This document shows positions 2,544 to 55,838 of a stretch of DNA of 64,000 bases, piece by piece. Every line of letters begins with the position of its first letter. Position 1 is the stretch's first letter. This stretch comes from Simkaniaceae bacterium (lineage in GTDB: Bacteria; Chlamydiota; Chlamydiia; Chlamydiales; Simkaniaceae): NCBI GenBank assembly GCA_050248615.1, contig JBFWSA010000006.1, positions 1 through 64,000 on the forward strand, given 5' to 3'. Both the position numbers and the translations under genes were made by a program. The notes below the pieces were generated by a model. It was not told where the DNA came from. It searched no databases and worked only from the letters and a program-made list of their open reading frames with translations.

Positions 2544-2703
2544 CTAAACTTGTTTTAAATTGGGATAATTTATGCGAGTCTTTCCGTTGTCCTTCGACTT
2601 CTTAAAATTTCTCCTTGTCTGATAGACAATGGTTTCGATTTTAAGAAGCCAAAATCCATCAAAAATACCTCTCCTAAATCGTCCCAATTTTAAACAAATC
2701 TAG
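2544..2703. mobile_element. Palindromic MITE-like element, type C (160 bp)
   Basis: 29-bp imperfect terminal IR (2544-2572 vs 2675-2703, 5 mismatches); inner stem TTCTTAAAAT...ATTTTAAGAA with apex CCTTGTCTGATAGACAATG. Confidence 0.7.
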
Positions 2704-2868
2704 TGCCTGACCACAAAAGTCCTTCATGGAATTTTTAGCGTCAAAGTTCCCGAGCTTGAGCTGCCGAAAAGCACGCTGTATTAATGCAATACAGTGTGCT
2801 TTTCGGCGGTTCAATCGCGGGTCTTTCACGCAAAAATTACTGCAAGGACTTTGGTGGTCAGGCACTAG
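2700..2868. mobile_element. Palindromic MITE-like element, type D (169 bp, CTAG ends)
   Basis: Terminal IR CTAGTGCCTGACCACAAAAGTCCTT / AAGGACTTTGGTGGTCAGGCACTAG; inner hairpin of about 25 bp with apex GTATTAATGCAATAC. Confidence 0.8.
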
Positions 2869-2882
2869 CTATCCTCCTTTCT

Positions 2883-3809
2883 TTATTTTTCGAAAATCCA
2901 AGAAGGGCCTTTTCCAAAACGGCGGAAGAGATAATCTTTAACCCCTGTTAATACAGCGCGATAGGTGCGGATTTTTTCCACCCTTTCAGGGGTTTTCTTG
3001 GAAAAAAGAGAGCGCAGGAGATACAACTTGAGGGTATGAAAGATCGTGGGCAGGAGAATCCGTAGGTATAAAGAGCGTTTTTCTTGGGGGGAACAGTTGC
3101 GCTCGATCCAAAGGAGACGATTGCGCCACCAAAAATAGGTGGTGTGGGGCTTTCCTCCTGTAAATGAGGCGGATACTTTATGGAAAAGCTTGGCTTTTGG
3201 ACAAAAAGTGGCAAGAAATCCCCCTTTTTTTGCGCGCAAACACCAGTCGCTCTCTTCCCAAAAGAGAAAGTACCTTTTTTCAAAGAGGCCAATCGTTTTA
3301 AAGACTTCTGCTTTAACAAATAGAGCCACACCACACACATAGTCTAAAGTGAGAGGTTCTGTCCATAGATCGACACTTTCTCCCTTCCCCATCAGTTCAA
3401 ATTCTCCGATCTCTGGGTTCCAATTCCCCCCCAAGTGATCCAAAAGGGTAGGATCACTCATCAGATGGGTTTTGCCCCCTTGGATGGGATGGTTGGGGTT
3501 TTCTAAAAAAGCGCTCAAGATTTGAGGATCGACTAGGGTGTCGTTGTTGAGAATCAAAAGATAATCTGCTCCTTTATCTAAGGCGTAGCGTATCCCCACA
3601 TTATTTCCTTCGGCATACCCGAGGTTTTCTCCCGTTTCAATGAGATGAATAGAGGGGAAGTACTTCCGAATCGAAGCGACTGAATCATCGGTAGATCCAT
3701 TGTCTACAACAAGGGTTTGATGGGGAGTCTCTACCTTTTCCAAGCTTTTTAAGCAGGCTAAAGTATCTTCTTTTCCATTCCAGTTAAGAATGATAACAAA
3801 TATTTTCAT
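2883..3809 (-). CDS. Glycosyltransferase family 2
   Basis: IILNWN, VVDNGSTDDS, NLGYAEGNN, LNNDT, EESDW motifs. Confidence 0.92.
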   Translation of the reverse strand: MKIFVIILNWNGKEDTLACLKSLEKVETPHQTLVVDNGSTDDSVASIRKYFPSIHLIETGENLGYAEGNNVGIRYALDKGADYLLILNNDTLVDPQILSAFLENPNHPIQGGKTHLMSDPTLLDHLGGNWNPEIGEFELMGKGESVDLWTEPLTLDYVCGVALFVKAEVFKTIGLFEKRYFLFWEESDWCLRAKKGGFLATFCPKAKLFHKVSASFTGGKPHTTYFWWRNRLLWIERNCSPQEKRSLYLRILLPTIFHTLKLYLLRSLFSKKTPERVEKIRTYRAVLTGVKDYLFRRFGKGPSWIFEK

Positions 3810-3815
3810 TCCTTA

Positions 3816-3836
3816 ATGAACCTATCCTAATGAATC
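3816..3836. repeat. Isolated or degenerate type-B terminus
   Basis: ATGAACCTATCCTAA matches the type-B termini at 18781/18946 and 52900/53067. Confidence 0.5.
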
Positions 3837-3930
3837 ATCAGTCCCAAATGGCCGATTTTTTCTCTTTATTACCCATAAAACCGTATATTTTGCTCTTATA
3901 CGGCCAAAAATCAATGTTTTTTTGGCCGAT

Positions 3931-4260
3931 TTAGGAGAATACGGTCAATTTTTGGACGTTTTCTGGACTGATGCGAGAGTCTTCGACAGCTTTTTGTAGA
4001 AACGATTCCAATCTGGGGGAGTAGGAGATGCGATCGATAGTTCCCTCTGCAATTCCTTTCCAAAAAGCCTCATGATTGAGCTCAACGAGGGCATCTCCGG
4101 AGAGTTCTGCGAAAACGGGGTGATGTTCCCGTTTTGCTTGGCGGATGAGAGAAACTTCTTCTGGGGTTTCAAGGTTGTGAAACCAAGTGGGTATGGGGTT
4201 TTTCCTTACCTCTGAGATCCCTTCTTCAAGAATTCTTAAACGTTTAAGCACGCTTTCCAT
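3931..4260 (-). CDS. Small protein resembling a dihydroorotase/amidohydrolase fragment
   Basis: HNLETPEEVSLIRQAK...VFAEL...EAFWKGIAEGTIDRI resembles the PyrC middle region; no metal-binding HxH. Confidence 0.45.
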   Translation of the reverse strand: MESVLKRLRILEEGISEVRKNPIPTWFHNLETPEEVSLIRQAKREHHPVFAELSGDALVELNHEAFWKGIAEGTIDRISYSPRLESFLQKAVEDSRISPENVQKLTVFS

Positions 4261-54171: not shown

Positions 54172-54268
54172 AATTTTAGTACCCAGAAATTCTGGGGAAA
54201 TGTATAGGGTAGTCTCAAATAAAGAATGGTGAGATGACCTTGAAGAGGCTTTGTTATGGAGAAAGCCG

Positions 54269-54730
54269 ATGAAGTGCCCTTTTTGTGGACATGAAGAATC
54301 GAAAGTGACCGACTCACGTGGAGCTAGCGAGGCGAATGCGATCCGAAGGCGGAGAGAATGTTTGAGCTGCGCGCGGCGATTCACCACTTTTGAAACGGTA
54401 GACATTTCGCTGCAGGTGCGGAAGAGAGATGGAAGTTATGAGGATTTTCACCTTCCCAAACTCATTAAGGGGCTGGATGCGGCTTCAAGACATACACGCA
54501 TTAGTCATGACCAGGTGAGAGATTTAGCCTCCTCTATTGCATCGGAGCTAATGGAAAACCAAGTCAGAGAAATTGATACAACCAAACTGGGGGAGCTTGT
54601 CATGGAAAGACTTCGAGAGTTAGACACAGTTGCCTATATTCGCTTTGCTTGTGTCTACCGCCGTTTTAAAGATGTAGATGAAATTATGGATGCTATACAC
54701 ACCGTTGCACCAGAAGAAGTGAAAAAATGA
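54269..54730 (+). CDS. nrdR: Transcriptional repressor NrdR
   Basis: MKCPFC, IRRRREC..C..RFTTFE, ATP cone, AYIRFACVY. Confidence 0.97.
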   Translation: MKCPFCGHEESKVTDSRGASEANAIRRRRECLSCARRFTTFETVDISLQVRKRDGSYEDFHLPKLIKGLDAASRHTRISHDQVRDLASSIASELMENQVREIDTTKLGELVMERLRELDTVAYIRFACVYRRFKDVDEIMDAIHTVAPEEVKK

Positions 54731-54739
54731 GGTTATGAA

Positions 54740-55105
54740 ATGCCATTAAAAAAAAGCGATATTGAAAAATTTAAAAAGCAACTTGAAGACCTTAAAAGGC
54801 AAATCAGTCAAACGATTAAATCGGTTGCCAATGATGTGAAATCCATGGAAGAGCCAAAAGGGTATTCTCAACACCAAGCCGATGAAGGAACCGATGACTT
54901 TGATCAAACAATTAGTATTGAAGTCTCCTCGAAAGAACAAGGGATTATGCGTCAAATTGAGCGCGCTTTAGAGAAAATTGAAGAGGGAACCTATGGCATT
55001 TGTGATGTATCAGGAGATGAAATTCCGATTAAGCGACTCGAAGCAGTTCCCTATGCGACGATGACCGTCCAAGCGCAATCAAAATTTGAAAAGGGGCTTT
55101 TGTGA
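54740..55105 (+). CDS. dksA: DksA/TraR family protein
   Basis: ALEKIEEGTYGICDVSG..I...RLEAVPYA; follows nrdR. Confidence 0.9.
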   Translation: MPLKKSDIEKFKKQLEDLKRQISQTIKSVANDVKSMEEPKGYSQHQADEGTDDFDQTISIEVSSKEQGIMRQIERALEKIEEGTYGICDVSGDEIPIKRLEAVPYATMTVQAQSKFEKGLL

Positions 55106-55109
55106 GGCG

Positions 55110-55646
55110 ATGAAAAAGAGGAGAGTTTTCCGTTTTATCTTTCTCTCTCTTTTTCTTTTTCTTTGCGATGCCTACACCAAGTATCTTGTTGCTACAAATT
55201 TGCCCAATATGTACTACGCCTCTCCCTTTTACCCTTATGGGGGGATAGGGGTTTTTCAAAATTTTTTAGGGATAGATTTTTGTATTAACTATGTCTCCAA
55301 TCATGGGGGAGCCTGGGGGCTCTTTGCAGCCTTTCCTGTTGCTCTACTGATTGGGCGCATCTGTATCATTTTAGCCGCATTTGTCTATGCAGCCTTTGTG
55401 AATAAACAGCCCCGGAGAGACCTTCCCTTTCTCCTCATTTTGACAGGAGCTTCCTGTAACATTTTTGATTGTTTTGTTTATGGGGCGGTCATTGACATGT
55501 TCCATTTTGTTTTATGGGGATACTCTTTCCCCGTCTTTAACGTTGCTGATATGATGATCTTTTTTGGAGTTGCAACCCTCCTGATTCAATCTTTATTTGA
55601 AAAAATAAAAACCCAGGGAAGGTACAATCCCGTCTTTAAATCATAA
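55110..55646 (+). CDS. lspA: Lipoprotein signal peptidase
   Basis: N.GGAWG, GA..N..D, VIDM, FPVFNVAD. Confidence 0.93.
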   Translation: MKKRRVFRFIFLSLFLFLCDAYTKYLVATNLPNMYYASPFYPYGGIGVFQNFLGIDFCINYVSNHGGAWGLFAAFPVALLIGRICIILAAFVYAAFVNKQPRRDLPFLLILTGASCNIFDCFVYGAVIDMFHFVLWGYSFPVFNVADMMIFFGVATLLIQSLFEKIKTQGRYNPVFKS

Positions 55647-55680
55647 GTTTGCTTGAGGATATCTTCAGTTGACTTTTTGC

Positions 55681-55838
55681 CTTTGTCTATAAGACAATGA
55701 CCTGCTGGAATCAAAAAAAAACATGATTTAACGCCGGTTGCGTGTAAAGGCTCTATGAAAAGACTTAGATTTCTGATGAGATTTAAAGATATCCCTTTAC
55801 ACGCAACTGAAGTCGTTTGAGTATAAGGATCGGTTCAT
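55681..55838. repeat. Composite or degenerate palindromic-element cluster
   Basis: Apex motif at 55681-55699; IR GTTGCGTGTAAAGG (55737-55750) / CCTTTACACGCAAC (55794-55807); type-A-like end GAAGTCGTTTGAGTATA; type-B-like AGGATCGGTTCAT. Confidence 0.6.

Follow-up and report, generated by a model that had tools for sequence, protein, structure and literature searches.

A 64,000-nucleotide stretch of the genome of a Simkaniaceae bacterium (assembly GCA_050248615.1, contig JBFWSA010000006.1, positions 1 to 64,000), hereafter the window, carries dispersed palindromic elements of about 160-180 bp, which are MITEs, miniature transposable elements with inverted repeats, of several insertion sequence (IS) families. 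They consist of tips of about 20 bp and, between them, a body of about 120 nt, the rod, which folds as a long imperfect hairpin. The source genome, G000, is chlamydia-like, amounts to 2.04 Mb in 69 contigs and is 96% complete, and the window is G000:C6:1-64000. In the locus labels used below, G denotes a genome, C a contig of G000, L a fetched locus, and F or S an element family or seed.

Hairpin elements of the window

A sequence-only reading of the window had listed eight full-length elements, and all eight indeed form single long imperfect hairpins over their full length, with folding z scores of -8 to -19 against dinucleotide shuffles. The leftmost is an F2 element on the minus strand (2539..2703) with TATAG tips (TA-TAGCTA type) of the IS630 type and a TA duplication. 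It is a real element whose true start is 2539 and not 2544, as had been given, and its right end is cut by an F5 element (2700..2868) inserted at CTAG. The latter has CTAGTGCC tips and a TA duplication within CTAG, is nested in the F2 end, and matches an IS630 partner weakly. Three F0 elements are present, at 16108..16269 (TATACTC tips, TA duplication), 40085..40247, and 47875..48038. The last of these is a recent insertion, with a precise empty site in which 162 nt are absent and one TA is left (contigs from three runs of three studies), while at the 16108 site one other strain is shorter by 126 nt and keeps about 36 nt. Two elements on the plus strand belong to the F1 family: F1a (18781..18946), with GAACCTATCC tips of the IS5 type, a 2-bp AT duplication, and a right end that shares an 18-nt stretch, base for base, with an IS5 end of genome G010; and F1b (52900..53067), with IS5-type tips and an AT duplication. 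The F11 element (23056..23234, plus strand) has CTAGTGGT tips and is 10 nt longer than F5 due to a bulge in one arm. An F22 element of the IS982 type with an ACCTGAG tip and one decayed end (61919..62085, minus strand) was absent from the earlier list. Shorter forms comprise collapsed F0 derivatives of 72 bp (5312..5383, both tips, no core) and 70 bp (27187..27256), and a solo F0 end (9995..10028).

A 19-nt motif had been proposed as a hairpin apex common to elements with different stems. It is exact at 2613-2631 in the F2 element and at 18856-18874 in F1a, and has one mismatch at 52976-52994 in F1b and at 55681, so that it is present in only three of the eight listed elements. The copy at 55681 is not the centre of a rod (folding z -2.1). 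It lies outside any rod in a strain-variable site made of element debris (55681..55825, minus strand), with a short derivative of the F4 type and an F0 right end coming after it. Downstream of this motif, at window 55612-55664, other strains have an intact 367-codon gene with a Fic motif, which has an F0 left half-end on one side and an F0 right end on the other (L118:~610-1710, reverse complement), where G000 has 51 different bases instead; the Fic gene may be MITE-bracketed cargo. The 1206-nt alternative at 55612 was considered as an IS and rejected, being this same gene. As the earlier reading had stated, no transposase occurs among the proteins of the window. Rfam at gathering score finds two tRNAs only in the window and no element match, and an E-value search gives sub-threshold hairpin matches only.

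Genome-wide population and the apex motif

A de novo inverted-repeat scan of G000 returned 229 loci, 147 of which measure 160-179 bp, and 31 seeds collect 407 loci (186 of full length), amounting to 2.1% of the genome. They fall into 24 sequence types, with five F1 subfamilies counted as one and three composite or truncated seeds dropped; four types are single-copy at the seed threshold. By lengths entered by hand, 22 of the 24 types measure 158-166 bp without duplications, the other two measuring 170 and 173. One of the full-length copies tested lies within an open reading frame (ORF), and 26 of the 186 adjoin or nest in another element. MITEs or ISs nested within MITEs are seen at G000:C1:12650-13143, C2:27980-28471, C24:25729-26064, and C32:6407-6742 and at L081, in two of which F1 is inserted in the F2 apex motif itself. 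A 35-bp F0 form occurs in 31 copies in G000; these forms and the 16108 remnant are likely in-place collapses.

The apex motif is present in G000 in 29 exact and 59 near-exact copies, against none in two Markov nulls. Of these 59, 39 belong to the GAACCTATCC family (F1) and 18 to the TATAGCTA family (F2), one is the copy at 55681, and one lies outside assigned families. The expected enrichment at hairpin centres holds genome-wide, 46 of 48 copies in full-length hosts lying within 12.5 nt of the centre. The apex is missing, even at 4 mismatches, from the family consensuses of the TACTC element and the two CTAGTG elements.

The same rods are present in relatives. Of 151 genomes of the class, 33 have the F0 tip pattern, which none of the 27 small (~1.0-1.4 Mb) genomes of family f36 carries, and a generalised apex reaches at least five copies in 11 of the 151, its reversed control giving at most 2. 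Among 57 apex matches from other genomes, 34 (32 distinct, from 12 genomes and 4 families) lie in rods of 160-170 nt, 8 at contig ends, and 15 where the finder detected no rod. Outside Chlamydiia, neither a plasmid match nor a viral pattern match was obtained, and the rod model had no match in 5 non-Chlamydiia genomes (150 candidates scored in four, no positive control).

Tips, target duplications, and partner insertion sequences

The elements are short, non-coding, multi-copy, and bounded by terminal inverted repeats (TIRs); they are non-autonomous transposons of several IS families. Their ends had been thought unlike those of ordinary MITEs, a view that was not borne out: the termini are conserved within each family, match known IS families, and are accompanied by family-specific duplications. 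The duplication is TA for F0 (41/47), F2 (13/14), F5 (6/7), F6 (8/8), and F11 (4/4); it measures 3 bp for S8 and F14, 5 bp for F10 (5/6), 6-7 bp for F4 (7/12), and 10 bp for F7b (one exact and one near-exact of 5). The AT reported as a terminus does flank the GAACCTATCC ends but is a variable 2-bp target duplication, matched in 26 of 30 F1 copies (AT 16, TT 4, AA 4, CT 2).

The ~20-bp tips and the duplications match IS5, IS630, IS982, and ISAs1 elements. Clear tip matches link F1, F6, F7a, and S8 to IS5, F7b to ISAs1, and F4, F8, and F22 to IS982; F2 matches IS630 moderately (12/16), and the IS matches of F5, F11, and F10 are weak. ISs from genomes of the same order supply such matches, and the loci whose ends agree with the tips are L007, L094, L078, L077, and L092 for IS5, L063 for ISAs1, L098 for IS630, and L120, L126, and L135 for IS982. 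The IS5 partner of F1 itself has AT or TT duplications, and one ISAs1-like element has a 10-bp duplication like that of F7b. In seven pairs aligned base by base, the identity between MITE and IS stops after roughly 18-27 nt, and MITE bodies have no match in 18 rod-less IS loci except where a MITE copy is a neighbour; the bodies of F19 and S4 are exceptional in matching the IS982 rods described below. Decayed IS5 and IS982 relics in G000 share ends with F1, F6, and F4, and a viral scan for the IS5 relic found nothing. The tips of F14 and F15 resemble IS630 ends (22/27), while the 3-bp duplication does not clearly match IS630. IS1182 as a partner of F10 is unsupported, with 11/16 at best.

Long pairs of element ends in G000 enclose host genes or nested MITEs and no transposases. 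Host-like genes stand between F0 or F2 ends at G000:C22:16512-17380 (with an adjoining paralogue), C35:10618-11060, C11:36156-37201, and C3:44129-45257; cargo mobilisation and independent insertions are both possible. Two other elements were met along the way. L012 (G000:C9:40860-41930) is an intact IS5-family element with a 297-codon ORF and a 9-bp duplication, sitting in an F22 MITE, and its ends match no MITE family. L043:1183-2597 is an IS630 element with terminal inverted repeats of ~120 nt and subterminal direct repeats, a layout unlike rods.

Exchange of modules between families

Tips, mid-stems, and cores were scored separately against column-shuffled rods (378 pairs), and they occur in different pairings, as the earlier suggestion of module swapping had it. 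F6 (IS5) and F7b (ISAs1) have a common body (mid-stem z 21.6, core z 9.7) under unrelated tips (z -1.4), and F6 lying within F7b is seen in one single-copy intermediate of 205 bp. F1 (IS5) and F2 (IS630) have a common core (z 6-9), as do F10 and F20, F15 and S21, and F8 and F23, whereas F1c and F4 have only the mid-stem in common and F2 and F12 only the tips. The same apex occurs with IS5, IS630-type, or TATACC tips, and in relatives it is found also beneath TATACC, CTAGTG, and one further tip. Swapping of tips, mid-stems, and cores between families is supported.

Rods inside intact IS982 elements

In 6 of 24 IS982 loci from other genomes of the order, rods of 117-124 nt lie just inside the TIR, and four of these six have an intact gene of 277-283 codons with a rod at both ends. 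In a GTDB-wide IS982 scan (37 of 79 loci examined), TIR-adjacent rods were found in 10 of the 37, in records titled chlamydiae or unclassified and one Verrucomicrobiae, whereas 5 chlamydial loci and all 22 other loci lack them. The nearest relatives of the same-order IS982 proteins are in records titled Waddliaceae, Chlamydiales, and Parachlamydiaceae, and one metagenome-assembled genome has 23 loci of rod-bearing IS982, two of which were examined. The rods start at a fixed 20-27 nt from the ends of the element, and no sequence is conserved at their own limits. The 18 distinct rods fall into at least five sequence types and include G000 relics, and in every one of them (18 of 18) the stable strand reads inward from the adjoining end. 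Across 16 aligned rods, compensatory change keeps 40 of 47 pairs, with AGAT in one arm and AG-T in its partner arm invariant; the rod of one IS copy, L136, is almost perfectly paired.

A model of the IS982 rods matches four MITE bodies of G000. The rods and these matches together define the MITE as tip (20), rod (120), and tip (20), and the rod-bearing ISs as a typical 940-bp IS982 with two rods added. The chlamydial rod-bearing elements are longer because of these two rods, at about 1150-1176 bp against 922-965 bp in relatives with clear ends.

A fold of one strand

In 28 family consensuses, paired in a strand-neutral way, the mismatches of the rod are A·G 175, G·T 95, A·A 61, A·C 36, G·G 27, T·T 18, C·T 10, and C·C 5. 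Inner and outer halves agree on the strand in all 23 informative cases; 34 of 34 rods from other genomes, oriented by the apex motif alone, have the same strand bias. Tandem GA/GA is the most frequent double mismatch (28 of 143), near 10, 30, 41, and 51 nt from the apex, and purine-purine mismatches have a period of 10.5 (global p 0.0015, from 17 hand-picked bodies). The bias is not a product of decay, since fresh copy-level mismatches are nearly symmetric (G·T 116 to A·C 95, A·G 53 to C·T 39). Among copies, 105 changes are compensated and 365 break pairs, and mismatch columns vary about twofold faster than paired ones. The purine-purine fraction is 0.89, against 0.66 in 37 non-chlamydial hairpins oriented alike, where G·T is not enriched; this control is imperfect because these are single loci rather than consensuses. 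In two other phyla, the hairpin repeats are of uneven length and have little strand bias. Dense MITE-like elements of hairpins or tandem repeats, variable in length and some with TATACT ends, were also seen in two non-chlamydial genomes (L328-L335, L345, L347).

The feature common to the families is structural: the length, the one-strand G·A and G·T mismatches, and their phasing. The amplifying lineages have very probably been selected for the fold of one strand. Of the earlier idea of a factor reading a folded tip, selection on a folded single strand is supported, and the 19-mer as a recognition site is not. GNRA or UNCG loops are absent (0 of 28). Each of the three long variants is 10 nt longer through a bulge of one arm, equal to one duplex turn (n=3), a step that matters for the end-to-end phase of a duplex and not for a hairpin. 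Between co-directional genes, the G·A strand has no overall bias (sense to antisense 44:46).

A possible mechanism and its alternatives

The tips are most probably read in trans by the cognate transposase; cognate enzymes of IS5, IS630, IS982, and ISAs1 would cut and paste the elements via the ~20-bp tips. As for the rod, it may be a swappable cis module that probably folds in single-stranded DNA and aids the synapsis of the ends, a proposal drawn from sequence comparison for which we hold the balance to be even. The ~120-nt rod would fold while one DNA strand is briefly single-stranded and would so help to bring the ends together: with these only ~160 bp apart, the way from one to the other would become shorter, and/or phased G·A kinks would be offered to a DNA-bending protein of the host. 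That the fold acts on DNA, in a transcription bubble or at a fork, through the shorter path and/or the kinks, falls in our judgement a little short of even. The DNA level is favoured by the lack of sense or antisense bias, the absence of RNA-type tetraloops, and the +10-nt one-arm bulges. Since the transposase families differ and most partners lack rods, the rod would be a dispensable aid that acts through physics or is recognised by some factor of the host. New families arise rather probably by either of two routes: template switching across the hairpin would duplicate a new IS tip onto the opposite arm, or deletion would reduce a rod-bearing IS to tip-rod-tip. A still broader idea is that of a portable transposition enhancer, a single-strand structure of ~120 nt with helically phased tandem G·A pairs, read by a host factor and common to chlamydial ISs of unrelated DDE families, with ERIC-type repeats as the same device; we find it doubtful. 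Grafted onto IS ends, such an enhancer would let tip-rod-tip miniatures out-replicate their parents.

A number of observations weigh against the synapsis proposal. An intact cognate transposase was not found in G000, and F0, the commonest and recently active family, has no partner among the IS630, IS5, IS982, and IS1182 loci examined and 20 F0-tip loci (one viral-contig locus left out). Most partner ISs examined (IS5, IS630, ISAs1, and other IS982) have no rod, so the rod is not needed for transposition. A quick IS982 tree, in which one row (L141) stands for an incorrectly chosen ORF and two further rows are missing, fixes neither the number of rod gains nor their direction between IS and MITE. 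Periods of 10 and 11 score close to 10.5, and the p values and counts overstate independence because the families and IS rods are related. The even orientation conceals opposite leanings between co-directional genes, with F1 and F2 together antisense (22:6) and F0 sense (13:5). By local GC skew, the strand that folds better is more often the C-rich one (99:65) and not the lagging-strand template; this excess may have arisen because stable hairpins were lost from the lagging template, and not because they serve a purpose on it. The consensus for integration host factor (IHF) is not enriched (5/28 against 9.4 in shuffles), as judged by an E. coli-type consensus. G·U enrichment with tandem G·A is equally compatible with RNA, and the inward polarity of the rods fits a role in RNA as well.

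In the main alternative, with the same transposases, the rod would act as RNA: transcripts running in from either side would fold and be cut, stabilised, or attenuated, with the transposase gene shielded and insertions made tolerable. The stable strand of the IS982 rods is the one that the incoming transcript carries at each end, G·T is enriched over A·C, and PMC10969869 and PMC2649163 report that hairpins of Correia and ERIC elements are acted on by RNase III or RNase E. We nevertheless deem this unlikely, because the MITEs have no gene to shield and no preferred orientation, RNA-type tetraloops are lacking, the one IS end scanned has no terminator-like site, and the +10 steps (n=3) are not predicted. 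An explanation without any role in transposition, namely a single ancestral imperfect palindrome that spread through tip capture and conversion between arms, and whose imperfection persists solely owing to the instability of perfect palindromes, agrees with the compensated changes among copies, the nearly perfected rod of L136, the in-place collapses, and the faster variation of mismatch columns. It is improbable nonetheless: conversion and decay are strand-neutral, yet the purine-purine fraction exceeds that of the non-chlamydial hairpins, the AGAT/AG-T pair is invariant despite turnover of the stem, and length is held across unrelated sequences.

The fixed start of IS982 rods of at least five sequence types would also be expected of a mobile parasite inserting beside IS tips, an option to which very little weight is given, as rod ends have no conserved sequence and amplified tip-less rods with their own duplications are not seen in G000. 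The notion of one undescribed mobiliser, HUH-like or a reverse transcriptase, that reads the 19-nt apex and moves all the families draws on the conservation of the apex under at least four tip types and its amplification in 11 of 151 genomes. This notion is largely refuted and slighter still in probability: five of the eight listed elements lack the apex, at least six duplication classes follow the tips and not the apex, and neither a Y1 transposase nor a reverse transcriptase was matched in G000, a 96% complete genome in which repeats may be unassembled. The apex is one of several core types, and a single apex-reading mobiliser, as once suspected, is not indicated.

Relation to known systems

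RUP with IS630-Spn1, BOX with ISSpn2, MITECca01 with ISCca4 (IS982), and IMU with ISSod9 are likewise short, non-coding, TIR-bounded, and target-duplicating, with IS-like ends, and their IS partners are recorded in the accessible parts of PMC2229807, PMC9769881, PMC3049150, and PMC3184786. Those MITEs belong to one IS each, and the usual account of them is that they arose from it by deletion; in the present genome, a single length and body plan is common to four IS families, and the bodies do not come from most partners and are exchanged between tips. ERIC/IRU (127 bp) also has TATAC-type ends, a hairpin over the whole length, and a GAG/TGA loop beneath the apex, and one E. coli ERIC copy has the same strand bias (purine-purine 13, pyrimidine-pyrimidine 2); it differs in being one family and shorter. 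Homology to ERIC over the whole length is unconvincing: for one decayed E. coli copy, the best z was 2.9 with matching orientations and 4.6 with opposite ones. IS200/IS605 and REP/RAYT elements have a strand-specific hairpin just inside each end. Their hairpins measure ~20-30 nt, are read by HUH enzymes, and come without TIR or duplication, in contrast to rods of ~120 nt inside DDE-type TIRs.

Correia elements (CREE/NEMIS) are similar in having 153-157 bp, a TA duplication, and shorter deletion forms, and an internal module, the IHF site, has been proposed there to aid end synapsis (PMC2649163, accessible text). They are built as 26-bp repeats around a core, whereas rod MITEs pair over the whole length and have no enrichment of the IHF consensus. 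Long stem-loops of 105-168 bp are also formed by Rickettsia RPE and Yersinia YPAL, with about ten RPE families in one genome, according to the accessible parts of PMC2229807 and PMC10969869. RPEs, compared here by description only, often lie in-frame in genes, unlike rod MITEs. A motif common to CIR, RPE, and Brucella repeats was reportedly noted by Chen and Shapiro in 2003. The chlamydial rod-bearing elements share the AC- ends and ~280-aa transposase of IS982, for which 2-10 bp duplications are also given in PMC7335449; in that review, the one passage with 'hairpin' concerns frameshifting, and 'MITE' is absent.

The system had been put forward as undescribed. Its kind is known, that of MITEs of known IS families, while its architecture was not found described in the accessible literature. 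Full-text searches, judged by their listings and the openings of abstracts, yielded nothing on chlamydial hairpin MITEs, cross-family tip swapping, strand-biased G·A rods, or rod-bearing IS982, some of which ISfinder, subscription papers, or the supplementary alignments of PMC7335449 could already contain.

Other features of the window

At 34434-38311, a beta-lactamase-family gene adjoins genes for a BlaR1-like peptidase and a BlaI-like repressor. The segment 38382-46808 holds a two-partner secretion pair (ShlB-like and TPS-domain proteins) and an autotransporter with passenger repeats, and an F0 MITE sits between the two secretion genes. The Tsp protease of the window has 4ql6, which we take to be the Chlamydia Tsp enzyme, as its best structure match, far above the others.

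Significance

Bacterial MITEs usually pass for degraded versions of a single IS, and their hairpins for by-products or for regulators acting as RNA. In the elements described here, a structured module has been kept while the sequence, the tips, and the transposase family change, and it is found also within intact multi-copy ISs. Intact rod-bearing ISs alongside rod-less relatives are what ERIC- and RPE-type repeats lacked, and they make the role of the hairpin directly testable. If ERIC-type repeats were the same device, their long-unexplained mobility would become testable too, and a cis enhancer working across DDE families would, if real, be new transposon biology, possibly useful for small vectors.

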